A stretch of DNA of 20,052 bases from a virus (Duplodnaviria; Heunggongvirae; Uroviricota; Caudoviricetes), in the IMG/VR virus record IMGVR_UViG_2534681705_000013, positions 1 to 20,052 of that record. One strand, written 5' to 3'. Position numbers and translations under genes: made by a program. The notes under the pieces were generated by a model. The model did no database searches and was not told the origin of the DNA. It worked only from the letters and a program-made list of their open reading frames with translations. This document shows, one piece after another, positions 3,774 to 20,052 of this stretch; position 1 is the stretch's first letter, and every line of letters starts with the position of its first letter.

Positions 3774-4598
3774 TCAGAATGTCAATTTGTCACTGGATTT
3801 ACCGAATTTGTCAGACATGGCACCAAGGCCAGACAGGACATCGACCTGTCGCTGTCGCCCACCTCCGGGAGCGGCTGGCTGTTGCCAGAAATCTTCGAAG
3901 TGACGATCGGGTCCAAAGAACGTCGCAGCCTGCTTCACGAACTGTGTGCCGGTATTTCCTGTAGCACGTACCCAGGCGGCATACCGCTTCACACCATCAA
4001 GCATGGTCTCCGGTTTTATTCCCTCCCTGATACGGGCTTTCCAGGCTTTGAAGGCTGCTGACTTGGAATTGCCACCAGCACGTTTGGGATATTCCTGCCA
4101 GGCCTGTTCAAATTCTGATGAATATCCCTGTCGGGCAGAACGCGCTGGTGCAGACGCGTCAGCGGATGCGCCAATAGTTGATTCATTGACTGGTTCTTTG
4201 ACTGGTTCAAAAGAGTGACTGGTTCTGGGTGAATCTCCTGCACTACCCCCTGGTGCAACTCCTGCACCACCTGGTGAATTTGCTGCACTAGGTAGTGAAT
4301 TATTTGCACTACCACCTGGTGAATCTTTTGCACCATCAAGACGAAGAAGATAAATATTGCTCGAGTTCCCTTTTTCACCTTTCCGGGAAACTTTTTTTAC
4401 CAGTCCGGATTCACAAAGAGCCGTAATATGATTCATCACAGAACGTTTGCTAATCTCGCACTGATCAGCAATATGCTGATAGCTGGGCCAGCACTCGCCC
4501 TGATCGCTGGCATTATCAGCCAGCTTAATCAGAACCAGTTTTCGCAACGGATTTCCCACGCGAATTTTCATCGCTTTCACCATCAGCTCCATGCTCAT
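3774..4598 (-). CDS. phage replication initiation protein (lambda O-like, N-terminal HTH)
   Basis: 274 aa; N-terminal winged-helix/HTH-like region (LRKLVLIKLADNASDQGECWPSYQHIADQCEISKRSV), a low-complexity Gly/Ser/Pro/Ala linker encoded by the iteron repeats, then a C-terminal domain; immediately upstream of the loader and helicase. Confidence 0.7.
   Translation of the reverse strand: MSMELMVKAMKIRVGNPLRKLVLIKLADNASDQGECWPSYQHIADQCEISKRSVMNHITALCESGLVKKVSRKGEKGNSSNIYLLRLDGAKDSPGGSANNSLPSAANSPGGAGVAPGGSAGDSPRTSHSFEPVKEPVNESTIGASADASAPARSARQGYSSEFEQAWQEYPKRAGGNSKSAAFKAWKARIREGIKPETMLDGVKRYAAWVRATGNTGTQFVKQAATFFGPDRHFEDFWQQPAAPGGGRQRQVDVLSGLGAMSDKFGKSSDKLTF
4187..4336. repeat. candidate phage replication origin: iteron-like direct repeats inside the O-like gene
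   Basis: Three copies of TGACTGGTTC (4187, 4198, 4216) followed by four ~20-bp repeats with core GGTGAAT-N6-7-TGCAC (about 4228, 4272, 4293, 4316), then an AT-rich stretch (~4336-4365). Confidence 0.55.
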
Positions 4599-4819
4599 AA
4601 CACACCTCCCAGGCGTTTAAACATTTTTCCGGACTGAAACGCCATCAACGGATAGCTAATGGTGTAGTTACGCCCCAGTAATTCACACACAACTTTCTGG
4701 CTTTCGGTGCTGACCAGGCAAACCCGCAGAACGTGACCGTTGCTGGTGGTGAACCACTGCCCCACACAGGGGCAACGGTTGTATCGGTGATACAGGGAGT
4801 TAACGATGCGGCGAATCAT
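4595..4819 (-). CDS. hypothetical protein
   Basis: 74-aa ORF; 4-bp overlaps with both neighbouring minus-strand genes suggest translational coupling in the replication operon. Confidence 0.4.
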   Translation of the reverse strand: MIRRIVNSLYHRYNRCPCVGQWFTTSNGHVLRVCLVSTESQKVVCELLGRNYTISYPLMAFQSGKMFKRLGGVL

Positions 4820-5049
4820 GGATGTACCTCCTGCACATCAGCCATGAGCATTTTACTGGCTGTTTCCAGCGCCTGGTCGGCGCTAATTTGCATGACAGCC
4901 AGTGAATGAGGAACGAAAGTCCCGGCATATTCTGTTTCACTGGTGGCGTGCTTATGCGCCCTGTCTGCAATAACAGGGATGTCAATAAGCGCATCCATCA
5001 GAGTTTTAATTACCGTAACAGTGGTATCTGAATAATGGTTATTACACAT
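4816..5049 (-). CDS. hypothetical protein
   Basis: ORF-track ORF 4816..5121; preferred start is ATG at 5049 (MCNNHYSD…), preceded by GGGAGG and overlapping the stop of the upstream Rha-domain gene (ATGTGTAA). Confidence 0.4.
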   Translation of the reverse strand: MCNNHYSDTTVTVIKTLMDALIDIPVIADRAHKHATSETEYAGTFVPHSLAVMQISADQALETASKMLMADVQEVHP

Positions 5050-6647: not shown

Positions 6648-6899
6648 ATGTCACAAAAAAACGATATTCCTGTTTTTCCTATTACAGCCTGGCAGGCTGG
6701 ACCATTGCCCGGTTATGGTGCGCTAGCATTAAAATTCCAGTACCTAGCTTCTCCTATGCAACCACTGGATTCAGCACAAGAAACTCAGTTCTTCGCGCTT
6801 ACTCCCGAAATGGCTGAGACTTTGATATCCGATCTGCGCCGACATATTGAGACGCTGAAAAAATCCGGTATTCACAGCCCACAAGAAAACAGGCATTAA
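6648..6899 (+). CDS. hypothetical protein
   Basis: 83-aa ORF with a strong SD (AAAGGAGGT) 6 nt upstream of the ATG; opposite orientation to the flanking minus-strand operon. Confidence 0.55.
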   Translation: MSQKNDIPVFPITAWQAGPLPGYGALALKFQYLASPMQPLDSAQETQFFALTPEMAETLISDLRRHIETLKKSGIHSPQENRH

Positions 6900-7193: not shown

Positions 7194-7304
7194 TCTTTAG
7201 CCTCACACCGGATACTCTGTTATCCAAGAATGTTAAACGCGAGAATCCAAAGTATCAAGAAATTCTGTTACTTTAGTATCAACAGCCATGAAAGGAGAAG
7301 AAAA
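7194..7304. promoter_or_regulatory. divergent promoter/operator region (OR-like) between cro-like and cI-like genes
   Basis: Repeated half-site GTATCAA at 7252 and 7276, GATAC at 7211; 12-mer CCAAAGTATCAA at 7247 recurs exactly at 7986 on the other side of cI. Confidence 0.5.
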
Positions 7305-7961
7305 ATGAAGTCTTTAGGTGAACGCCTCATCAACGCACGACAAAAAGCTGGGTTAACGCAAGATGCGTTGGCTAAAAAAGCAGGGGTCACCAGAGTTGCA
7401 ATCAGTAAAGCCGAGCAAGGCCTTACAAAAAGTTTCAACGGTGACACCCTTTTTAAAGTCGCAGCTGCACTGCAGTGTTCACCGCAGTGGCTTCAGAACG
7501 GAGATGAAAAAGATAAGCATTGGGAAAATAATGTTAAGAGCTGCCCACAGAGAGACACAGCACACTCTTACCCTGTAATTAACTGGGTTCAGGCAGGATT
7601 ATTCGCAACCGCTGGTGATGACTACAACATGTATGATCAGGATAATTGGAGGCATTCTGTAAAATACGCTGGTGAGAGGGGGTTCTGGCTAGAAGTGCAC
7701 GGAGACTCAATGACTTCGCCCGCAGGAATAACATTTCCTGAAGGAATGTCGATCCTTGTCAACCCAGATAAAGAAGTTTTTTCAGGGTGTTACGTCATCG
7801 CCAGAAAAAAATCTACCAATGAAGCAACATTCAAAAAATATATTTCTGAAATGGGAAAGGCGTTTCTAAAACCCCTTAATCCACAATATCCAATCATAGA
7901 AATGGACAATGATTGCGAAATAGTAGGTGTTGTGGTTGATGCCAGGTGGGATATTTTCTGA
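7305..7961 (+). CDS. CI-like prophage repressor (N-terminal HTH, C-terminal S24/LexA-like peptidase domain)
   Basis: ORF-track ORF 7230..7961; true start is ATG at 7305 (AAAGGAGAAG SD). HTH LTQDALAKKAGVTRVAISKAE; C-terminal GDSM motif and lysine-containing region typical of self-cleaving LexA/CI repressors. Confidence 0.85.
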   Translation: MKSLGERLINARQKAGLTQDALAKKAGVTRVAISKAEQGLTKSFNGDTLFKVAAALQCSPQWLQNGDEKDKHWENNVKSCPQRDTAHSYPVINWVQAGLFATAGDDYNMYDQDNWRHSVKYAGERGFWLEVHGDSMTSPAGITFPEGMSILVNPDKEVFSGCYVIARKKSTNEATFKKYISEMGKAFLKPLNPQYPIIEMDNDCEIVGVVVDARWDIF

Positions 7962-8064: not shown

Positions 8065-8568
8065 ATGATCAATAAAGCCACAACTCTTGACTGTCTCGAA
8101 GAACTGAAAAACCTCGGCAGCCTCATTACGCTAATAGCAAAAGCAACACCAGATGCTACGCTCTCTAGCGATATAGAGTCATGCGCAGGACTGGCATGGG
8201 ATATGACAAATAGCATATCCAGAAAGCTATCGTCAGCAATGCTTTTACAGAACAAAAATTCTGCAATCAACAACCGTCTTCGCACCCAACGCGAAGCCTG
8301 CGGCTTAACAACCGCCGAACTCGCCAGGCTGCTCGATCTCGATGAAGAAATCATCATCCAGTGGGAGAGCGGAGAGTATGAACCAACTATCAGTATGCTT
8401 ATCCCACTGGCAAATATTCTTGGCTGCGATCCGATGTGGCTGTTAACTGGCGAGGTTACTCCTCCGGAGCAACCAAAAAGTGAGGAGCAGCAACACCATG
8501 ACGCATCTCAACAAGTTTGCTCCTTATCTCGCGAAGCTCTTCTACGGAAGAACCAATACCAATGGTGA
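8065..8568 (+). CDS. XRE-family HTH protein with the HTH in the C-terminal half
   Basis: 167 aa; residues ~85-140 (LRTQREACGLTTAELARLLDLDEEIIIQWESGEYEPTISMLIPLANILGCDPMWLL) are a classic XRE/Cro-type HTH; the N-terminal ~80 aa are unassigned. First gene after the OL-like region. Confidence 0.6.
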   Translation: MINKATTLDCLEELKNLGSLITLIAKATPDATLSSDIESCAGLAWDMTNSISRKLSSAMLLQNKNSAINNRLRTQREACGLTTAELARLLDLDEEIIIQWESGEYEPTISMLIPLANILGCDPMWLLTGEVTPPEQPKSEEQQHHDASQQVCSLSREALLRKNQYQW

Positions 8569-10025: not shown

Positions 10026-10201
10026 ATATTAAGAAGAAAATAATTCTTCCGTTTTTTACTAACCGTTTATATGAAAAGCAACCGTGAATTAAACAGAGTA
10101 AAACTGATTTTAATCCTTGCCACAGTACTGACACTAACTGAAATCATTATTCTCTTTATTGCGCTGTCAGTCGGTTAAAAATATCTGGATACCACAGACC
10201 A

Positions 10202-10390
10202 ATGAGACTGTATTTCACAATAGTAATTTTACTGGCAATTATCGCATGCATTTACGGATTACTCGTTCCGTTCCTTATATCCATGAAGGATACGATAGCA
10301 GTTATTTCTGGCTTTGCACTGGCGTTTCTGACTCCGCCCTGCATTTATGCCATTTACAAGGGGCTTTCTTTCACTAAGGATAAAAGATGA
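10202..10390 (+). CDS. small hydrophobic membrane protein (two predicted TM helices)
   Basis: 62 aa, mostly hydrophobic; stop overlaps the start of the SPFH gene (ATGA at 10387-10390). Confidence 0.45.
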   Translation: MRLYFTIVILLAIIACIYGLLVPFLISMKDTIAVISGFALAFLTPPCIYAIYKGLSFTKDKR

Positions 10391-11214
10391 AAAAAAATAT
10401 TTTTGCTTTAGCCATTGTTCTGCCGACTATTGGCCTTGTCGGTTGCGATCGCGTTGAACCAGGTAATGTTGGCATCAAGGTAAATAAACTGGGCGACGAC
10501 AAAGGCGTCGGTGAGGTGGTCGGTGTTGGTCGCTACTGGACTGGCTGGAATACTGAAGTTTATATCTTCCCCACCTTCAAACAAATGAAGACCTACGATG
10601 AACCGTTCAGTTTCCAGATGAGTGACGGTACAACCATCGGCTATCACATTGGCGTGGCCTACAAAGTTGATCCATCCAAAGTTACCACGGTGTTTCAGAC
10701 CTACCGCAAAGGCGTGGATGACATTACAGACACCGACCTGCGCCAGAAGATCGCCGACGCACTCAACCGACTGGCCAGCAAAATGACCACTGACAAATTT
10801 ATCGACGGCGGCAAGTCTGAGCTGCTGGATGAAGCTCTTAAAGACATTCAGGCAGAGATGACACCTATCGGTATTCAGGTAATGAGCCTCTCATATGTGG
10901 GTAAGCCGGAGTACCCGTCAACCGTTATCGACAGCATTAATGCCAAAGTCACGGCGAACCAGAAAACACTGCAGCGCGAGCAGGAAGTTAAACAGCGCGA
11001 AGCGGAAGCCAACATGTTGCGCGCGGAAGCTGCCGGACAGGCTGATGCGATTCGCACAAAAGCCCAGGCCGAAGCCGATGCTATTCGTTTACGCGGTGAA
11101 GCTCTGCGCCAGAACCCCGGCGTTATGGAGCTGGAAGCCATCAATAAATGGAACGGCACACTGCCGCAATACATGACTAGCGGTTCTAATACACCATTTA
11201 TCCAGGTTAAATAA
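10387..11214 (+). CDS. SPFH/band-7 (HflC/stomatin-like) domain lipoprotein
   Basis: 275 aa; signal peptide with lipobox LVGC; core resembling band-7/SPFH proteins; C-terminal Ala/Glu/Arg/Gln-rich coiled-coil typical of the family. Confidence 0.8.
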   Translation: MKKNIFALAIVLPTIGLVGCDRVEPGNVGIKVNKLGDDKGVGEVVGVGRYWTGWNTEVYIFPTFKQMKTYDEPFSFQMSDGTTIGYHIGVAYKVDPSKVTTVFQTYRKGVDDITDTDLRQKIADALNRLASKMTTDKFIDGGKSELLDEALKDIQAEMTPIGIQVMSLSYVGKPEYPSTVIDSINAKVTANQKTLQREQEVKQREAEANMLRAEAAGQADAIRTKAQAEADAIRLRGEALRQNPGVMELEAINKWNGTLPQYMTSGSNTPFIQVK

Positions 11215-11254
11215 CTTATATGCCCGGCAGAACGCCGGGCTAAGGAAAAAGCAG

Positions 11255-11614
11255 ATGAATACCCAGAATACTCAACCGCAAATAATGAACTATGACCCGA
11301 ATCTGACGTTGTGCGGACGCATGGCAAAACAAACCGTTCGATTAACTTTCGGGCTATGGGAATACCGCGAAACATTCGAAGTCACTGTCGGCGGCAATCT
11401 GACCGGACTGGATGTTATCAGTTGCGCTATTGAAAGCCTGTACGCAACGCTGCCTTATGAAGAAGTCGAGGATGAGCGCGATATCATAGCCACCATTAAT
11501 ATCGGCGGACTGGAATGCAAGGATGAAAACCTGTCCGGAGAGCTCTGGCTTGCCGGGATGCTTATCTCAGCAGAAATTATCAGTATTGAACCCGCTACAA
11601 ACATACGGCTCTGA
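11255..11614 (+). CDS. hypothetical protein
   Basis: 119-aa ORF with AAGGAAAAAG SD; preceded by a GC hairpin at ~11222-11240. Confidence 0.5.
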   Translation: MNTQNTQPQIMNYDPNLTLCGRMAKQTVRLTFGLWEYRETFEVTVGGNLTGLDVISCAIESLYATLPYEEVEDERDIIATINIGGLECKDENLSGELWLAGMLISAEIISIEPATNIRL

Positions 11615-11645
11615 AGTTCTCACTATTCAGAGAGCAGGAGAAAAA

Positions 11646-11888
11646 ATGTTCGCTTTGATTAATCAAGGGCAACTGTATACCGACAGTGCCGGTTACCCGG
11701 TAAAAATTATTCGCTGCATAAACAACACTGTGTTGTACAGAAGAATGGATGGGCGAACACAATCGGTAAAAATAAACGATTTTAATGAACTGTTTGAACG
11801 GATCGATCACCAGGAATACCGACAAATTCTGGCAGAAACAGAGCAGGAAGCTCATCTGAAAAAATTACGGGCCATGAAAAGGAAGTAA
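11646..11888 (+). CDS. hypothetical protein
   Basis: Internal ATG of ORF 11523..11888 with an AGGAG SD (MFALINQGQLY…), 80 aa. Confidence 0.45.
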   Translation: MFALINQGQLYTDSAGYPVKIIRCINNTVLYRRMDGRTQSVKINDFNELFERIDHQEYRQILAETEQEAHLKKLRAMKRK

Positions 11889-12046: not shown

Positions 12047-12256
12047 GTGGGGCTGGATTGCGTGCCTATATCAACCTACTGCCGCGACGCGGGAGAAACG
12101 GTTGATGCCGTTAACAAACGGATACAAAGAGGAATATGGAAAGAAGGGGTTCATGTATTAAAAGTCGACGGAGTTAAAGAACGCTGGGTCGACTTAATAG
12201 AGGTTTCAAAATGGGCAAGAAAGAACAAGGATTATTATCTCTGCCAAGAGGAGTAA
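12047..12256 (+). CDS. putative excisionase (Xis-like DNA-binding protein)
   Basis: 69-aa ORF with GTG start and GAGGTG SD; overlaps the integrase start by 46 bp, the usual xis-int arrangement in lambdoid phages. Confidence 0.45.
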   Translation: MGLDCVPISTYCRDAGETVDAVNKRIQRGIWKEGVHVLKVDGVKERWVDLIEVSKWARKNKDYYLCQEE

Positions 12257-13395
12257 CTATTCGTAAGCATAAAACTGCTTCAACACTAGTTATCACTTTC
12301 ACATATAAAGGGGTTCTTTGCAGGGAGCCCCTGTCTCGGCTTGAGGCAAATACACGTGGTATTAAATATGCTGAGCGCCTGCTAGGGGAGATACAAAATC
12401 AGATCGCCAGCGGAACGTTTGAATATGCGAAATATTTCCCCAGTTCCAAAAAACTGGAGTTATTCGGTGTAGTAAAGAAAACCAAAAATATTAAGTCCTA
12501 TCTTGATGAATACCTGAAAATTTGCGTGAACCGCAATCTGTCGCCGTCAACCATTGGCGGTTACGAAAAATGTCTATCAGCACTATCAGAACTACATAAA
12601 CTACATGTAACAGAATTGACGCCTGCGGTACTAAAAAATTGGATAGCCAGCCGAAAAACTAAGCTGAAAACAATCAGGAACAACCTGTCATTTCTGCGCA
12701 GCGCCATTGATGAGGCTGTAACTGATGGCCTGTTGACTATTAACCCGGTAACTCTTGTCAGCGCCAGCCGGTATCACGTGGTCGACAGTAAACCGAACGC
12801 CGACGATTACGAAGTTGATCCGTTTGCGCCTGCGGAAACCAGTGCAATATATCAGCACTGCAAGTATCAGGAATGGCAGAATCTGTTCCGCTTCGCCTTC
12901 AATACAGGGCTACGCAGCTCTGAGCTATGCGCATTACGTTGGACCGATATCGACTTTATAGGTAATACAGCGCACATACAGGCAGCCAGTGTCGTAGGCG
13001 TATTGAAAGGCACCAAAACAAAAGCAGGCACCCGTAAAGTGGAATTAAACAGTGAGGCTCTGGCGGCTCTGCAAGCACAAAAGCAATTCACATTCATGAA
13101 AAGCGAGTTCATATTCAGTGACCCCAAAACGAAAGAGCCTTGGGCGAACGCTGATGCAATCCGCAAAAAAGCATGGGTTCCCACCCTTAAAAAAGCCGGT
13201 GTCCGTTACCGTAACCCCTACCAGACGCGACACACGTTCGCCACGCGGCACATCAGCCAAGGTGTAAATCTATTCTGGCTTGCTGGCCAGATGGGCCACA
13301 AAGGACCGGAAATGCTGTTCCGACATTATGGTCGCTACCTTTCGGCCTATGATGGCAAAACGTCACTTGATAGCCATGCACAACATTTTACGTGA
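12211..13395 (+). CDS. lambda-family tyrosine integrase
   Basis: 394 aa; lambda-Int-like N-terminus (MGKK…LPRGV.IRK), catalytic-domain signatures (TGLRSSELCALRW, HTFATRH, LAGQMGHK…RHYGRY). Confidence 0.9.
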   Translation: MGKKEQGLLSLPRGVTIRKHKTASTLVITFTYKGVLCREPLSRLEANTRGIKYAERLLGEIQNQIASGTFEYAKYFPSSKKLELFGVVKKTKNIKSYLDEYLKICVNRNLSPSTIGGYEKCLSALSELHKLHVTELTPAVLKNWIASRKTKLKTIRNNLSFLRSAIDEAVTDGLLTINPVTLVSASRYHVVDSKPNADDYEVDPFAPAETSAIYQHCKYQEWQNLFRFAFNTGLRSSELCALRWTDIDFIGNTAHIQAASVVGVLKGTKTKAGTRKVELNSEALAALQAQKQFTFMKSEFIFSDPKTKEPWANADAIRKKAWVPTLKKAGVRYRNPYQTRHTFATRHISQGVNLFWLAGQMGHKGPEMLFRHYGRYLSAYDGKTSLDSHAQHFT

Positions 13396-13885: not shown

Positions 13886-14809
13886 ATGGCAAGGATTATT
13901 GTCAACATCAGCGCAACAGTTTTCACCCTTATGCTCTTATTTAGGGCATTGTTCACTTACATTTATCCAGACACACTTCCTTTCGATATAGCTATCATCG
14001 ACTGGCTTGTCGTAGCTTCAGGTTCAGGTGCTGCCATTTCTTCTATCTTCTGCTTTATCAAAAAACGCTACCCCGATACAGCAGAATTTTTACCGATGTT
14101 CAGCACAATTTGTTATGTGATCGTGCTGATCGGATACGCAATATTAAGGTACACCCCCACATATCAAACCTCATTGTCAATAATGGTTACAGGGATGTTA
14201 GTTGGTATGGGATGGTGGATACAGTGCATTACTTCTGCAGCCAATACTCGCAGATCACATACCCTGAACATGATCATTAACACGCGAACCAGCCCGGAAT
14301 ACCAGAAACAATTAAGAAACAGCACCGCTTTCTATCGAGGTATGCGCTATGTACCACAAGAACTTTCAGAATGGCGATGCAACCCTGATAAAGACGAATA
14401 TAAGAATATGAAAGTACCGGAAGAATATCGCGACGCAATTAATGGGCTTCTATATATTCTTAACTACTTTGAGTTTCTTGCCCAAGGGATCAAATTCAAA
14501 GATTTAGATGACGGGTTACTAAAAGAATGTTTCTCAAGCTTCCTAAGAGGCATCGAGAGGCGAGGGTTTCACATGATCTTAGAGTCGCAAAAGCAAGACC
14601 CAGCAGCATTTGAAGGAATTATTTATCTTTCTAAAAAATGGAATGGTTCATCATTTGTAGAAACTCACCGATCAAACCCAAATACTGTTGAACTTGGTAT
14701 CCCTTATCCGTCAAACGAAATTGTTGAGAAAATGGTGAAGGGCATCCCCATCCTTGAGGAAGAACCAGCGCCAGAGTTACATCTTGCCTCCGAAACAGAG
14801 ACTCAGTAA
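13886..14809 (+). CDS. membrane protein of unknown function (about four N-terminal TM helices plus a ~190-aa soluble C-terminal domain)
   Basis: 307-aa ORF; hydrophobic segments in the first ~120 residues, charged C-terminal domain; AT-rich; between the prophage integrase and the tmRNA core fragment. Confidence 0.65.
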   Translation: MARIIVNISATVFTLMLLFRALFTYIYPDTLPFDIAIIDWLVVASGSGAAISSIFCFIKKRYPDTAEFLPMFSTICYVIVLIGYAILRYTPTYQTSLSIMVTGMLVGMGWWIQCITSAANTRRSHTLNMIINTRTSPEYQKQLRNSTAFYRGMRYVPQELSEWRCNPDKDEYKNMKVPEEYRDAINGLLYILNYFEFLAQGIKFKDLDDGLLKECFSSFLRGIERRGFHMILESQKQDPAAFEGIIYLSKKWNGSSFVETHRSNPNTVELGIPYPSNEIVEKMVKGIPILEEEPAPELHLASETETQ

Positions 14810-14895
14810 TGACACAAGAGGGATATCAATATGCACGTAAAATGCACTTAGCCAGTATCAAAACTTAATAACTAAATATATTCAATGAGTTATGC

Positions 14896-14934
14896 TATTT
14901 TCGGACACGGGTTCAACTCCCGCCAGCTCCACCA
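14896..14934 (+). other. ssrA: 3'-terminal fragment of tmRNA (ssrA): T-arm and acceptor 3' strand ending CCA; attachment-site core
   Basis: ATTTTCGGACACGGGTTCAACTCCCGCCAGCTCCACCA matches the 3' end of enterobacterial tmRNA as I recall it, with one mismatch in the T-stem; upstream sequence is protein-coding, so the tmRNA body is absent. Confidence 0.7.
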
Positions 14935-14980
14935 AAATTCTCCATCGGTGATTACCAGAGTCATCCGATGAAGTCCTAAG

Positions 14981-15014
14981 AGCCCGCACGGCGCAAGCCC
15001 TGCGGGCTTTTTTG
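14981..15014 (+). terminator. intrinsic terminator (native ssrA terminator)
   Basis: Stem AGCCCGCA…TGCGGGCT followed by TTTTTTG, downstream of the CCA end. Confidence 0.6.
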
Positions 15015-15068
15015 TGCCCTCAATTTGTCCCGCGAAGTCCGAAGAAAACTAATTAAATCCGATCCTTT

Positions 15069-15120
15069 TAGGCACCTTGTTAGGCACCTCATAAAGCTTT
15101 ATTGTTTTTTGAGGTGCCTA
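15069..15120. promoter_or_regulatory. repeat cluster upstream of the P4-type integrase gene
   Basis: TAGGCACCT at 15069 and 15081 (direct), perfect palindrome ATAAAGCTTTAT at 15091-15102, inverted copy AGGTGCCTA at 15112-15120; ends 20 bp before the integrase ATG. Confidence 0.45.
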
Positions 15121-15139
15121 AAACTATGGAAACCCGGCA

Positions 15140-16381
15140 ATGGCAAGACAAACCAAACCTCTATCCGTTAAAGAAATAGAATCAGCCAAACCCAAGGAGG
15201 CGGACTACGTTCTCTATGATGGCGATGGCCTTGAGCTACTCATTAAATCCAGCGGGAGTAAAATCTGGCAGTTTCGCTACATTCGCCCTGTCACCAAGAA
15301 ACGAGCAAAGAAGAGCATAGGCTCCTACCCGTCAGTTACCCTTGCCGATGCCAGAAACTACCGTGCAGAGTCCCGCTCACTACTGGCTAAACAGATCGAT
15401 CCGCAGGAACATCAGCAAGAACAATTGCGCAGTTCGCTGGAAGCCAAAACCAACACTTTCCAACTCGTAGCTGAACGTTGGTGGAATGTGAAGAAAGCCA
15501 GTGTGACAGAGGACTATGCGGAAGATATCTGGCGCTCTCTTGAAAGAGACGTCTTTCCTGCGATTGGCGACGTTAGCGTTACAGATATTAAAGCTCATAC
15601 ACTGGTTCAGGCCGTACAACCGGTTCAGGCCAGAGGAGCACTGGAAACTGTTCGTCGCCTGTGCCAACGTATTAATGAGGTCATGATCTATGCCCAGAAC
15701 ACAGGGCTGATTGATGCTGTTCCCAGCGTTAATATCGGTAAAGCCTTCGAGAAGCCTCAGAAAAAGAACATGCCCAGCATTCGACCGGATCAGCTACCTC
15801 AGTTAATGCAGACGATGCGAACAGCCAGCATTAGCCTTTCCACACGCTGCCTGTTCATGTGGCAACTTCTTACTATTACCCGCCCTGCCGAAGCGGCTGA
15901 AGCTCTCTGGGAAGAGGTAGACATAGAAGCGCGAGAGTGGAAGATTCCTGCAGCACGCATGAAAATGAACCGCGACCATACTGTTCCATTGTCAGATGAA
16001 GCAATTGCGATACTAGAGATGATGAAGCCGTTAAGTGGAAATCGAGAATTTATCTTTCCCAGCCGCATCAAGCCAAACCAGCCGATGAACAGTCAGACCG
16101 TAAACGCATCGCTAAAACGCGCAGGTTTTGGTGGGGTGCTCGTTTCACACGGCCTGCGATCTATCGCCAGTACAGCCCTTAATGAGCAGGGATTTCCACC
16201 TGATGTTATTGAGGCTGCACTTGCTCATGTGGATAAGAATGAGGTTCGTCGTGCGTATAACCGTAGTGATTATCTTGAGCAGCGACGGCCTATGATGCAG
16301 TGGTGGGCTGATTTTGTGATGGCTGCAGATCACGGTAGTATGATTGAAGGAGGGATAAAGGCAATGCGGTTAGTTGGATGA
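15140..16381 (+). CDS. intA: P4/CP4-57-type tyrosine integrase
   Basis: 413 aa; N-terminus MARQTKPL…KPKEADYVLYDGDGLELLIKSSGSKIWQFRY characteristic of P4-family integrases; sits ~200 bp downstream of the tmRNA 3' end as CP4-57 intA does in E. coli K-12. Confidence 0.9.
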   Translation: MARQTKPLSVKEIESAKPKEADYVLYDGDGLELLIKSSGSKIWQFRYIRPVTKKRAKKSIGSYPSVTLADARNYRAESRSLLAKQIDPQEHQQEQLRSSLEAKTNTFQLVAERWWNVKKASVTEDYAEDIWRSLERDVFPAIGDVSVTDIKAHTLVQAVQPVQARGALETVRRLCQRINEVMIYAQNTGLIDAVPSVNIGKAFEKPQKKNMPSIRPDQLPQLMQTMRTASISLSTRCLFMWQLLTITRPAEAAEALWEEVDIEAREWKIPAARMKMNRDHTVPLSDEAIAILEMMKPLSGNREFIFPSRIKPNQPMNSQTVNASLKRAGFGGVLVSHGLRSIASTALNEQGFPPDVIEAALAHVDKNEVRRAYNRSDYLEQRRPMMQWWADFVMAADHGSMIEGGIKAMRLVG

Positions 16382-16461
16382 CATGTCGTAGCTAAAACCC
16401 GTTCTGTTTTTGGGTAGATTAACCTGAAGGTCTGCAATTTTAAATGACGCTGAAAGAAGTT

Positions 16462-16486
16462 AAACCCTGCTCTTAAGCAGGGTTTT
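16462..16486. terminator. hairpin between convergent genes (likely bidirectional terminator)
   Basis: 10-bp stem AAACCCTGCT/AGCAGGGTTT, loop CTTA, T-rich on both sides; between the intA stop and the stop of the large minus-strand ORF. Confidence 0.45.
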
Positions 16487-16519
16487 TATGATTTATTCTA
16501 ATTTTGGTTTTGAATCTTT

Positions 16520-18807
16520 CTATTTTAAATCAGCCTTTGCGGCTCGAATATCTGCGTTTTTTGCTGAGTATTCCCATTCGTCAGCGATTCTAAATAGCAT
16601 TGCAGAAGTACGGACGCAGTGGGGCATTGAATTTGCCCATTCTCGGTACTGCTCAGCTAATATCCTTTCTTGGTTTCCACCTTCGTAACGCATACGAGCA
16701 AATACCCCCCTTTTATTGTACCTACCAATTTGTATACCTTGCTCTAACTCATCAGAAGATAATATTTCAATGATGTGCCGAATTGCTTCATGTGGCCAGG
16801 AATTATCTACTGAGCTATTAGGGGCATGTGCCAGAATTTTTCCTATTACATGATCAGTGATTTCTTGGCGATGATGCAATTTTGCTAAATGGCGTACATT
16901 CTCACACCAATCTTCAAGTTTATCTTGATCAATTTCATTGTCTATCTGCCCTGGTAGTATTCGTAATTTTTCAAGTAATCTGTATATAGAAGTAGCTCTT
17001 TTAACTTCCAACTCCGATGGTTCTGTTTGTTCATCTTCGTCACTACGATATACAATACATATTGCTTCTATAAAAACCTCTGGCTTTTTCATCATTAGAC
17101 GATGCAGGATAAGTGGCTCATCGCTATCCGGAAAACAAGGCAAGTAGGTCATTTCTTTAAATGCCAAATCTGTTTCAGAAACATCGTTACGTTGTTTGAG
17201 TTCATCAAAAACTTTTTTTACATAGTACGATAGCATTGTATCAAATTGGATATCCTGGCTATTTATTTCTTTAACGACTATATCTAGAAGATATAAAAGT
17301 GTTGTAGATGGAATCTCAGAAAGGCGTTGATTTGCTGATATAATAGCAGCAAGACCCCGGCCCCTTTCTATATATTTATCCATAAGAACAAATAAATCCG
17401 AAGTTTTACCCATCATTGCAATGGGTTGTTTTTGCAACCAATATTTTTCGTTGATGTTATCTTCAAACCCTTCAATAATGCTCCATATCTCTTGTGAGTC
17501 TCTTAACGATGCTAAGATTTTCCCAGCCCTATCAGGGGTAATTTTAAACTGTTTAAAATACACTTTTATTTTATTAAGCCATTCAGCACCAAAGCATTCA
17601 ACACCATATTGCATTAACAACCCACAAACTTCATCAATATTTTTTTTGTTGTTAATAAGCATTACAAACAAATCATTTAATTTTTCTTCATCCAACGAGA
17701 GTGCTGATATATGCCTTGCTGCAATAAAAACATTATTAACTTGTTGAAAAAGGTCTTTCACCCCAGACAAACCTAAAGTAAAGTATATTTCCCTAAGTTT
17801 TTCACTTCGCATTTCTTCGACAGAAGAAAAAATTCCGCCAGCATTTTCAATTGACTCTTCAATATCAGAATCCCAATCATTGAAAATCCATAAACTGGCT
17901 CTAACCATGTCAATTGGTTTATAATTATCAAGTATTTTCGCTATTTTTTCCATAGACTCAAATTTAAATGCCCAGTTCGCATCTGAATATTTTTTATGGC
18001 GAGAATACTCATGACGCAAAGCCTCCCATACGATGAACTGATCCTCTTCAGTTTGTTGAGAAAGGCAAAGTTCAAGATGAGAAAGTGTTTCATCTATTGC
18101 ATTCTCAGGGAATGAGCTTAAATGAGAGATTAGGATTTCCCATCTTGTTGGGAGTATACCTGCAAGTTTAATTGCTTCTTGGATAATAAAGATTTGCCCC
18201 TCCCAAACAACGCCCCACGTTAGTTTTTCTACATCTTTATCCGACTCTCTGAACTTCATTTTTTGGTTTTGATCAGAGGTATCATGGGAGCGAGGAAGGA
18301 GATTTTGTAACAAACTCCACCCAATACTAGGAACAATAGTGATAATTTTTTTTATAATTGCATTTCTAACTTTTACTGGTGCCCATGTATTAGGAGACCA
18401 TGCCAGAAAAATGGTTCTTAAACTATTAAGAGGGCGATCTGAGTAAGTTCCTCCGGGATCTATTACAGCGAGTTTTGCAAGACAGATTGCAGCGCGTAAT
18501 AGATATGTTTGTTCCCAAGCCAAGGCTTCCAATGCCCATTTTAATCCATGATAATGACTTCGAGGAGTTAACAGCCCTTTATCTTCATTGAATATTGGAG
18601 CAATCATTTCCCCATTGCCCTTAAGCAATTGCTCAAGGGCATCAAGGAAAGGGCCAGGGGCAGCTTCTGCCAGCAGCGGAAGTTGATCTCGCAAACTAAC
18701 AAATAGTCGATGGTCGTTAGCAAGTCCCGGAATACTCTGAACTATTTTGTTAACAAAATCTTGGGGTGTCATACCAGTAACCCGGAATTCGGCCTGTTCA
18801 TGTAATA
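16520..18807 (-). CDS. large alpha-helical protein of unknown function, adjacent to or 5'-interrupted by IS3
   Basis: ORF-track ORF 16520..18823 (767 aa); the first 5 codons including the TTG start lie inside the IS3 left inverted repeat. Strongly AT-rich; Leu/Glu/Lys/Trp-rich; no catalytic motif recognised by eye. Native start is either ATG at 18775 or beyond the IS. Confidence 0.65.
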
Positions 18808-18872
18808 TGATCTTACCCAGCAATAGTGGACACGCGGCTAAGTGAGTAAACTCTCAGTCAGAGGTGACTCAC

Positions 18873-19172
18873 ATGACAAAAACAGTATCAACCAGTAAAA
18901 AACCCCGTAAACAGCATTCGCCTGAATTTCGCAGTGAAGCCCTGAAGCTTGCTGAACGCATCGGTGTTACTGCCGCAGCCCGTGAACTCAGCCTGTATGA
19001 ATCACAGCTCTACAACTGGCGCAGTAAACAGCAAAATCAGCAGACGTCTTCTGAACGTGAACTGGAGATGTCTACCGAGATTGCACGTCTCAAACGCCAG
19101 CTGGCAGAACGGGATGAAGAGCTGGCTATCCTCCAAAAGGCCGCGACATACTTCGCGAAGCGCCTGAAATGA
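18873..19172 (+). CDS. insE: IS3 transposase OrfA (HTH subunit)
   Basis: [53 protein letters not shown]… matches IS3 InsE from memory; the ORF track starts 9 nt earlier at GTG. Confidence 0.85.
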
Positions 19173-20034
19173 AGTATGTCTTTATTGAAAAACATCAGGC
19201 TGAGTTCAGCATCAAAGCAATGTGCCGCGTGCTCCGGGTGGCCCGCAGCGGCTGGTATACGTGGTGTCAGCGGCGGACAAGGATAAGCACGCGTCAGCAG
19301 TTCCGCCAACACTGCGACAGCGTTGTCCTCGCGGCTTTTACCCGGTCAAAACAGCGTTACGGTGCCCCACGCCTGACGGATGAACTGCGTGCTCAGGGTT
19401 ACCCCTTTAACGTAAAAACCGTGGCGGCAAGCCTGCGCCGTCAGGGACTGAGGGCAAAGGCCTCCCGGAAGTTCAGCCCGGTCAGCTACCGCGCACACGG
19501 CCTGCCTGTGTCAGAAAATCTGTTGGAGCAGGATTTTTACGCCAGTGGCCCGAACCAGAGTGGGCAGGAGACATCACGTACTTACGTACAGATGAAGGCT
19601 GGCTGTATCTGGCAGTGGTCATTGACCTGTGGTCACGTGCCGTTATTGGCTGGTCAATGTCGCCACGCATGACGGCGCAACTGGCCTGCGATGCCCTGCA
19701 GATGGCGCTGTGGCGGCGTAAGAGGCCCCGGAACGTTATCGTTCACACGGACCGTGGAGGCCAGTACTGTTCAGCAGATTATCAGGCGCAACTGAAGCGG
19801 CATAATCTGCGTGGAAGTATGAGCGCAAAAGGTTGCTGCTACGATAATGCCTGCGTGGAAAGCTTCTTTCATTCGCTGAAAGTGGAATGTATCCATGGAG
19901 AACACTTTATCAGCCGGGAAATAATGCGGGCAACGGTGTTTAATTATATCGAATGTGATTACAATCGGTGGCGGCGGCACAGTTGGTGTGGCGGCCTCAG
20001 TCCGGAACAATTTGAAAACAAGAACCTCGCTTAG
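19169..20034 (+). pseudogene. insF: IS3 transposase OrfB (DDE catalytic subunit) carrying an internal frameshift
   Basis: ORF-track ORFs 19169..19672 and 19615..20034 are two frames of one protein; the frame breaks near 19557-19561 (…ASGPNQS|GQETSR… instead of …NQKWAGDITY…), just before the conserved W-x-x-D-I-T-Y segment. Confidence 0.75.
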
Positions 20035-20052
20035 GCCTGTGTCCATATTACG

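Follow-up and report, generated by a model that had tools for sequence, protein, structure and literature searches.

Why a prophage should carry a protein of the SPFH family, and with what partner, is the question raised by the DNA described here, positions 1 to 20,052 of the IMG/VR virus record IMGVR_UViG_2534681705_000013 (Caudoviricetes). We refer to this whole stretch of 20,052 nucleotides as the window. According to a phage paper of 2026, it 'remains unclear' why a phage genome would contain an SPFH lipoprotein (PMC13239085). The plus strand of the window encodes a 275-amino-acid SPFH/Band 7 lipoprotein immediately preceded by the gene for a 62-amino-acid protein with two transmembrane (TM) segments. 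From the comparisons described below the two genes are an obligate pair. We propose that they encode a two-component scaffold of the inner membrane and travel with the prophage as accessory cargo, a reading in which our confidence is evenly divided.

A preliminary description of the locus, made from the sequence alone, had named a prophage-borne SPFH lipoprotein with one or more small membrane partners and listed three open reading frames (ORFs). All three are found where they were placed, and the lipobox, the Band_7 domain and the two-TM gene agree with that description. The features of the locus are as follows (dN/dS, ratio of non-synonymous to synonymous differences).

10387..11214, plus strand: gene for the 275-amino-acid SPFH/Band 7 lipoprotein (Pfam, PHROG, dN/dS, AlphaFold2, Foldseek)
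10387..10449, plus strand: signal peptide (residues 1-19), lipobox LVGC (10435-10446) and Asp at position +2 (10447-10449), read from the sequence
10918..11145, plus strand: long C-terminal helices of the SPFH protein, residues 178-253 (AlphaFold2; helices 178-242 and 244-253)
10435..11181, plus strand: DNA block common to the lambdoid, P2-like and P1-like versions, encoding the mature SPFH protein (megablast)
10202..10390, plus strand: gene for the 62-amino-acid two-TM hairpin partner (PHROG 1130, dN/dS, 83 of 83 close loci)
10071..10178, plus strand: hydrophobic ORF of 35 codons, present at these coordinates, its status as a gene unsupported

The SPFH lipoprotein and its two-TM partner

The 275-amino-acid protein matches the Pfam family Band_7 (PF01145) over residues 22-208 with an E-value of 8.8e-31 (107.7 bits, cutoff 23.6), and PHROG 200, annotated 'lipoprotein', with an E-value of 6.7e-113. 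The 62-amino-acid protein has two hydrophobic stretches and matches PHROG 1130 ('membrane protein', E-value 2.5e-23), and its TGA stop codon overlaps the ATG of the SPFH gene as ATGA. Across 84 related loci we compared a crude count of synonymous and non-synonymous differences in frame and in the two off frames. The resulting dN/dS is 0.06 in frame for the SPFH gene (4.96 and 2.80 off frame) and 0.23 for the partner gene (1.07 and 3.28 off frame). Because the in-frame values are low compared with those of the off frames, both genes are truly coding and under purifying selection.

The N-terminus of the SPFH protein reads MKKNIFALAIVLPTIGLVG and continues with CDRVEPG. It comprises a positively charged n-region (MKK), a hydrophobic core, the lipobox L-V-G-C, and Asp at position +2, which is the classical Lol-avoidance signal for retention in the inner membrane of E. 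coli and the Enterobacterales. Both marks of an inner-membrane lipoprotein, a lipobox of the form [LVI][ASTVI][GAS]C and Asp at +2, are thus present in the sequence, and in 37 enterobacterial homologues the conservation of Cys20 and of Asp21 is 90% or higher. Because of these marks, and of the architecture of the fused relatives described below, the mature protein is predicted to stay in the outer leaflet of the inner membrane, its SPFH domain projecting into the periplasm.

The AlphaFold2 model of the protein has a mean confidence score (pLDDT, predicted local distance difference test) of 75.5, and the SPFH core scores 80-93. The helix at residues 178-242 (~65 residues) is what the preliminary description had called a C-terminal coiled coil. 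The last 30 residues have low confidence in the monomer model, as would be expected of a segment that folds only in an oligomer. A Foldseek search of the PDB returned HflC/HflK (7vhq), prohibitin (8rrh, 9o9z) and erlin (9vvg, 9o9u) as the top matches, with E-values of 1e-13 to 1e-14 over ~280 columns, followed by stomatin, flotillin, QmcA-YbbJ (8z5g) and the major vault protein. The Foldseek probability is 1.00 to HflK/C, prohibitin, erlin, stomatin, flotillin and QmcA. Helices 178-253 align with the helical wall of the HflK/C, prohibitin and erlin chains, and in the model they appear equivalent to the coiled-coil wall of SPFH cages. HflK/C, prohibitin and erlin are the SPFH proteins whose domains lie away from the cytoplasm. 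Rings or cages are formed by all of these structural relatives, with the HflK/C, prohibitin and erlin domains on the non-cytoplasmic face (PMC12048511, PMC12624060). By sequence, a search of the PDB detected only HflK (E-value 1e-3) and a fragment of prohibitin-2. The NCBIfam models for hflC (TIGR01932) and hflK (TIGR01933) score 24.7 and 23.3 bits, compared with cutoffs of 134.4 and 159.4, respectively. The 275-amino-acid protein is HflK/C-type in build and not an orthologue of HflK or HflC.

The partner carries a conserved motif, P-x-L-I-S-x-x-D/S...V..G, at the turn between its hydrophobic stretches (VPFLISMKDTIAVISG in the window). The P, the S and the downstream G of this motif are at least 90% conserved among 71 distinct partners. 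In the same 71 proteins the mean number of lysine and arginine residues is 1.9 at the N-terminus, 0.5 in the loop and 3.6 at the C-terminus. Given this distribution and the positive-inside rule, the partner is predicted to be a hairpin with both ends in the cytoplasm and the conserved motif at the periplasmic turn. No Pfam family matched the 62-amino-acid protein, the diverged partners or the N-terminal extensions of the fused proteins described below, where Band_7 was the sole match. A search of 5.8 billion proteins with a partner profile, which was limited by its word index and did not recover the fusions known from the SPFH side, gave 74 matches. Seventy-one of these are standalone proteins of 51-76 amino acids, two are of 37 amino acids and one is of 134, and none of the 74 carries a precomputed Pfam domain. 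We therefore class the partner, as judged from its sequence, as a non-NfeD protein.

The ORF of 35 codons upstream of the pair had been put forward in the preliminary description as a possible additional partner. It has no Shine-Dalgarno sequence, its dN/dS of 0.73 equals that of one off frame, and scans of Pfam, PADLOC, PHROG and NCBIfam returned no family match. Its presence is patchy, as it is missing from ~30 otherwise intact modules that have an alternative upstream sequence, and also from the phages P88 and RCS47. A third component is ruled out by this distribution and by the substitution pattern; the ORF is probably not a gene and lies outside the conserved module.

Pairing of the two genes and the junction at the lipobox

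In all 83 related loci that cover the upstream sequence, the ORF of 62 amino acids precedes the SPFH gene with the same overlap. Two unrelated phage types have partners of their own. The P2-like phage P88 encodes a 67-amino-acid two-TM protein, annotated 'membrane protein', directly 5' of its SPFH gene and overlapping it as ATGA. The P1-like phage RCS47 has an unannotated two-TM ORF of 78 amino acids directly 5' of the SPFH gene with an overlap of 20 nucleotides. The partners in the window, P88 and RCS47 have in common LLP-x-M/L-I-S-x-x-S/D...G between their hydrophobic segments. The gene is easily overlooked in existing records: the 62-amino-acid partner gene is unannotated in phage phiP27 (NC_003356), and the RCS47 gene (NC_042128, 77292-77528; 2731-2967 of our locus L003) is absent from the RefSeq annotation.

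When 1.84 billion cluster representatives were searched exhaustively with HMMER, 3015 relatives of the SPFH protein were identified at an E-value of 1e-3 or lower, and 226 at 1e-30. Among the top 150 representatives, the N-terminus is lipobox-like in 94 and a plain TM anchor in 38, and ~20 are extended to 320-390 amino acids. The extension is the partner itself, so that these proteins consist of a first TM helix, the P-x-L-I-S motif, a second TM helix, a basic linker, a third TM helix and then the SPFH domain. The segment corresponding to the signal peptide is the third TM helix, which ends in a lipobox-like Cys. As read from these sequences, the architecture is consistent solely with a periplasmic SPFH domain. 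Because fused proteins provide Rosetta-stone evidence, they also suggest that the partner and the SPFH protein form a physical complex where the two are separate.

One such fusion, P0037 from E. coli (347 amino acids, 8 member sequences), joins an RCS47-type partner to its SPFH protein. A small indel is a plausible origin for it, the RCS47 genes overlapping by 20 nucleotides. The AlphaFold2 model of P0037 places its three N-terminal helices at pLDDT 43-60.

Loci from more distant genomes were collected with an alignment of 8 SPFH sequences, an alignment of 34 sequences being too diverse. A partner profile built from 22 sequences was then searched in 80 loci from one-genome-per-species contigs. 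At an E-value below 1e-6 the profile identified a partner in 20 of the 80 loci, each directly upstream of the SPFH gene and on the same strand, with the exception of two loci (L085 and L086) that have an insertion of ~770 bp at the junction. When the profile is combined with hydropathy, a partner is recognized in ~45 of the 80 loci (38 adjacent two-TM ORFs, a few found by the profile only, 4 fusions and 2 interrupted pairs). The genomes that bear a partner include Sphingomonas, Acidobacteriota, Hymenobacter, Saprospirales and a metagenome-assembled genome of Saccharibacteria.

The pairing is tighter in viruses. Eighty diverged viral contigs were obtained from a scan seeded with diverged proteins, earlier scans having given near-identical loci only. 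A partner is found upstream in 72 of them, 65 by the profile and 7 by hydropathy together with a visible motif. When the neighbouring ORFs of these 80 loci were clustered, the partner at position -1 was the sole recurrent neighbour, and every other cluster occurred in at most 13 loci. The result is the same from the partner side: for three different partners, a Band_7 gene is next in 10 of 10 places, starting at the stop codon of the partner or within a few bases of it. The preliminary description had suggested a survey of how often the two genes occur together, and the outcome, including the fusions, is strongly positive.

In the two interrupted loci, from Shigella flexneri SFBU1023 (L085) and E. 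coli ECMA0423 (L086), the insertion lies at ~4230-5000, between the last codons of the partner and the start codon of the SPFH gene, and uncouples the two genes. Its ORFs resemble IS1 InsA.

The versions carried by different coliphages are mosaics. With 10060-11220 as the query, megablast matches to P88, RCS47 and other P1-like phages run from query position 376-381 to near 1118-1122. The similarity therefore begins at the lipobox (~10435) and breaks off about ten codons short of the stop codon, and these breakpoints are seen again in hundreds of E. coli genomes and plasmids. Comparison of the versions in the window, P88 and RCS47 gives 95-98% amino-acid identity and 86-91% nucleotide identity for the mature SPFH coding block, whereas identity is 32-58% for the signal peptides and 24-46% for the partners, and the DNA upstream is unrelated. 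The divergence among these three partners is as large as that between the partner in the window and those of Xenorhabdus or Sutterella. Differing cassettes of partner plus signal peptide have therefore been joined by recombination to a nearly constant block encoding the mature SPFH protein. Such a mosaic is compatible with an invariant scaffold whose membrane subunit can be exchanged, but rapid change is also tolerated by TM segments.

Distribution and prophage setting

The SPFH gene has a match in 569 of 5426 complete E. coli genomes, and in 218 of these the pair of the type in the window covers at least 80% of the query. On plasmids there are 239 matches, and nearly all of these plasmids are non-mobilizable replicons of ~90-120 kb, which by size and typing are P1-like phage-plasmids. 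Homologues with 75-87% protein identity occur in Salmonella, Klebsiella, Enterobacter, Citrobacter, Kosakonia and Raoultella, as well as in phages of Erwinia and Klebsiella.

In distant bacteria the pair is chromosomal, and its neighbours encode a major facilitator superfamily transporter, a LysR regulator, an AddA-like helicase, a thioesterase, MetH, an ABC1 kinase and HMG-CoA reductase; one Sutterella locus is phage-like. The diverged viral contigs are 40-370 kb in length. Their neighbouring genes encode ribonucleotide reductase subunits, thymidylate synthase, nicotinamide phosphoribosyltransferase, MazG, PhoH, RNA ligase and SegE-type homing endonucleases. Such a set of genes is characteristic of large virulent phages. 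Taken together, the sequences suggest that the module is an old bacterial cassette that is carried by many kinds of phage and is not tied to lysogeny. The preliminary description had allowed that the pair might turn out to be a housekeeping chromosomal paralogue captured without phage-specific conservation. Although it is chromosomal in distant taxa, the pair is strongly conserved in phages.

The window as a whole is a lambdoid prophage of the phiP27 or Stx2-phage type. The segment 10060-11220 is 98.4% identical in nucleotides to phage phiP27 and ~93% identical to several Stx2a- and Stx2d-converting phages, and its 3-kb surroundings are 95-98% identical to prophages of E. coli chromosomes. The minus strand of the window carries replication genes (encoding DnaB-like, IstB/DnaC-like and HTH/DnaD-like initiator proteins; HTH, helix-turn-helix) and Ash/Rha-type regulators. 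The module itself lies on the arm that runs from repressor to integrase, which bears out the placement in the early-left region proposed in the preliminary description. The following features flank it.

7230-7961, plus strand: CI-like repressor, on the same strand as the module and 5' of it
8065-8568, plus strand: HTH protein, between the repressor and the module together with several small ORFs
11222-11240, plus strand: perfect 7-bp GC-rich hairpin, GCCCGGC-AGAAC-GCCGGGC, 8 nucleotides past the stop codon of the SPFH gene and without a U tract
12211-13395, plus strand: tyrosine integrase, on the same strand and 3' of the module

The hairpin has a predicted folding energy of -17.1 kcal/mol (z = -3.3 compared with shuffled sequences) and is not called by the terminator scan. 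It could be a stabilizer of the mRNA 3' end or a weak terminator. In the scan for promoters and terminators, such sites were no more frequent around the module than in shuffled sequence.

Several other genes of the window are of note. A DUF5406 gene (11255-11614) adjoins the 3' side of the module and starts 15 nucleotides beyond the hairpin. It is accompanied by a DUF4222 gene, which begins at ~11646 according to the annotation of a homologous prophage (the longest ORF is 11523-11888). Both are found 3' of the module in all close E. coli relatives, and neither adjoins it in P2-like, P1-like or environmental phages. In the immunity region, an ORF of 83 amino acids (6648-6899, plus strand) matches the BssS biofilm-regulator family (PF13991, E-value 1.3e-15) and may be an accessory gene borne by the prophage. 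ARAGORN found no tRNA genes in the window. Past the prophage integrase, 13886-20052 appears to be a second integrative element with the features listed below.

13886-14809: DUF4760 protein
15140-16381: second tyrosine integrase, of the P4 type
16520-18823, minus strand: protein of 767 amino acids with no Pfam match
19169-19672: HTH_21 transposase-like fragment

Relation to known SPFH systems and possible roles of the pair

Neither protein family is new to the databases: they are PHROG 200 and PHROG 1130, with SPFH, lipoprotein or membrane protein as their annotation. A 2009 classification of prokaryotic SPFH proteins contains small subfamilies (6-12) without documented members and considers NfeD-type partners only (PMC2636767). 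The literature searched yielded neither a functional study of this SPFH family nor any account of the obligate pairing and the fusions, of a periplasmic inner-membrane topology such as is predicted here, or of the mosaic junction.

The module resembles HflK/HflC in having an SPFH domain followed by long helices (Foldseek matches 7vhq, 7wi3 and 9cz2, E-values 1e-12 to 1e-14) and in its predicted position facing the periplasm from the inner membrane. It differs in its low sequence identity (14-18%), in having one SPFH gene, in its predicted lipid anchor in place of an N-terminal TM helix, in its two-TM partner, and in being carried by phages outside the hfq-hflX-hflK-hflC operon. The operons that combine SPFH and NfeD genes (QmcA-YbbJ, YqiK-YqiJ, PH1511-PH1510) also pair an SPFH gene with that of a small membrane protein, and their fusions and co-occurrence suggest a stoichiometric complex; QmcA-YbbJ (8z5g) is among the fold matches. 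However, the partner described here lacks an NfeD domain or soluble OB-fold, has two TM segments only, and at 62 amino acids is too short for a soluble domain. Its gene is upstream of the SPFH gene, whereas NfeD-type partners are downstream, and the SPFH domain is predicted to be periplasmic while that of QmcA faces the cytoplasm (PMC2636767). Prohibitin and erlin give top fold matches over the full length of the protein and form rings or cages on a non-cytoplasmic face (PMC12624060), as is predicted for the module. They are eukaryotic, hetero-oligomeric proteins with an N-terminal TM anchor and do not have a small hairpin partner.

According to the scaffold model that we favour, the SPFH protein would be exported, lipidated and, through Asp at +2, kept in the inner membrane with its domain in the periplasm. 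The subunits would assemble through their long C-terminal helices into a ring or cage on the periplasmic face. The hairpin partner would present its conserved P-x-L-I-S-A-x-S turn to the periplasmic leaflet and form the transmembrane rim that a lipid-anchored SPFH subunit is missing. Ring and rim together would enclose an area of the inner membrane and thereby sequester the proteins or lipids of that membrane, or regulate them. Since the module is found in three unrelated temperate families and in large phages of the virulent type, the benefit to the phage would most likely be a general change to the envelope of the infected or lysogenic cell. We rank exclusion of competing phages or membrane stabilization ahead of interference with FtsH-type proteolysis, and the latter ahead of lysogeny control; the physiological role, as ranked here, is unproven.

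Several points weigh against the scaffold model. Lipidation and inner-membrane retention are predictions, and in non-enterobacterial members the residue at +2 is often Ser, Thr or Gly, which under E. coli rules would direct the protein to the outer membrane. The cage is inferred from the similarity of a monomer fold at 14-18% identity, and the low pLDDT of the N-terminal helices of P0037 means that this model says nothing about how the partner packs. A Cytophagales/Bacteroidia subgroup (30-35% identity) has the SPFH gene with no recognizable partner. In the scan of the window, no promoter or terminator signal shows when the pair is expressed, and the model names no client protein.

The preliminary description had offered the resemblance to HflK/HflC, which regulate the FtsH protease, as grounds for a role in the lysis/lysogeny decision. 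On this explanation a phage cage captures or competes for FtsH, alters the turnover of a CII-like protein or of membrane substrates, and thereby shifts that decision. The closest solved structures by both sequence and fold are indeed HflK/HflC in complexes with FtsH, and the predicted periplasmic orientation is the same. HflK/C, prohibitin and erlin all work with membrane proteolysis or degradation machinery (PMC12048511, PMC12624060), and the analogy to HflK/C and CII was proposed earlier, with no test, for an SPFH protein borne by a satellite (PMC4936722). However, the argument is one of family resemblance, and the specific expectations are not borne out. The HflC and HflK models fall far short of their cutoffs (24.7 versus 134.4 bits and 23.3 versus 159.4 bits), the similarity to HflK in sequence is marginal (E-value 1e-3), and the locus has a single SPFH gene with a lipobox signal peptide and a two-TM partner in place of tandem K and C paralogues that form a heterodimer with N-terminal TM anchors. 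No Pfam CII family matched any of the five small ORFs tested from the immunity/replication region, and ftsH, hflX and hfq were absent from the ten flanking genes scanned in five distant genomes. No lysis/lysogeny switch of a P2-like or P1-like phage is known to use an FtsH-labile CII. The module is nevertheless present in P2-like and P1-like phages, in contigs of the virulent type that make no lysogeny decision, and in chromosomes. Given this distribution, the failed HflK/C tests and the lack of a Pfam CII match among the ORFs tested, a role specific to lysogeny is unlikely, and we consider modulation of FtsH in the manner of HflK/C improbable as well.

Another possibility, which we regard as doubtful, is superinfection exclusion or another membrane-based defence, in which the cage and hairpin block DNA entry or membrane steps of a competitor and the variable partner is the specificity element. 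The inner-membrane proteins T4 Imm and Sp, P22 SieA and HK97 gp15 are known phage exclusion proteins; T4 Imm is small with two TM segments, and Sp acts in the periplasm. The likeness of the module to these is an analogy of location only, since none has an SPFH domain, and we found no sequence or family relationship to any of the four. The genomic context is suggestive of defence in that the module occupies accessory or early regions of three unrelated temperate coliphage families, including the variable region of P1-like phage-plasmids, and in the 569 of 5426 E. coli genomes it is always mobile cargo. The mosaic junction, with SPFH proteins at 95-98% identity and partners at 24-46%, is of a pattern frequent in conflict genes, and the predicted site of action would be the membrane face crossed by incoming phage DNA. 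On the other hand, rapid divergence of TM segments happens in any case, selection within one partner type is purifying (dN/dS 0.23) and not diversifying, and the neighbours in distant chromosomes are housekeeping genes with no sign of defence islands. PADLOC-DB v2 has no match to the SPFH protein, the 62-amino-acid protein, the 35-codon ORF or the flanking small genes. Across the module and its neighbours its matches are confined to the HTH parts of two regulator ORFs (RmrA, capH and control-protein models). A link between SPFH proteins and phage defence is also absent from the literature searched. The pair could also be a widespread membrane conflict system spread by phages, with a constant periplasmic SPFH cage and an exchangeable two-TM specificity subunit, that shuts out rival phages at the inner membrane or takes over FtsH-type membrane proteostasis; we offer this only tentatively and think it unlikely to be correct.

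Two further explanations give the small protein or the lipoprotein a role of its own. A two-TM protein of 62 amino acids with a charged C-terminus and both ends in the cytoplasm could be a membrane effector similar to a class II holin or pinholin, which the cage would check or position in lysis timing or abortive infection. Its tight one-to-one genetic coupling to an SPFH scaffold is in keeping with this, and channels and membrane-active peptides are under SPFH control elsewhere (YqfA is noted in PMC2636767). However, the pair is distant from any lysis cassette in the window, and association with one is ruled out in viruses, where no lysis genes recur beside the pair in 80 loci. Covalent fusions to SPFH and housekeeping contexts are ill-suited to a lethal protein, and the most conserved residues are in the periplasmic turn and not in the helices; an effector is thus highly improbable. 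Least probable of all, to the point of being barely credible, is a lipoprotein of the cell surface or of vesicles that acts on an animal host by lysogenic conversion, for instance through TLR2. The analogy, by description only, is to Pasteurella multocida PM0222, an SPFH-superfamily protein from a prophage island that is released in outer-membrane vesicles and activates TLR1/2 (PMC9872710). The module is common in Stx2-converting phages and pathogenic E. coli. However, the Asp at +2 points to retention in the inner membrane, environmental phages and free-living bacteria that have no animal host carry the pair in abundance, and any triacylated lipoprotein can stimulate TLR2.

SPFH cages (HflK/C, prohibitin, stomatin, flotillin and erlin) are under active structural study, and the clients and roles of most bacterial members are unclear. 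The module offers a compact and genetically tractable case, with one SPFH subunit and one hairpin of 62 amino acids that nature sometimes joins in one polypeptide. About one tenth of complete E. coli genomes contain the module, on lambdoid phages (including those that convert to Stx2), P2-like phages and P1-like phages, and many environmental phages have it too. Were the pair to have no phenotype, it would be an ordinary conserved hypothetical pair. An effect on phage entry, membrane proteolysis or the stability of the envelope would account for an accessory gene that is very common in phages and would define a new type of SPFH partner. If the pair should in fact be a conflict system, this would be the first defined function of a phage-encoded SPFH protein, together with a new class of partner distinct from NfeD.

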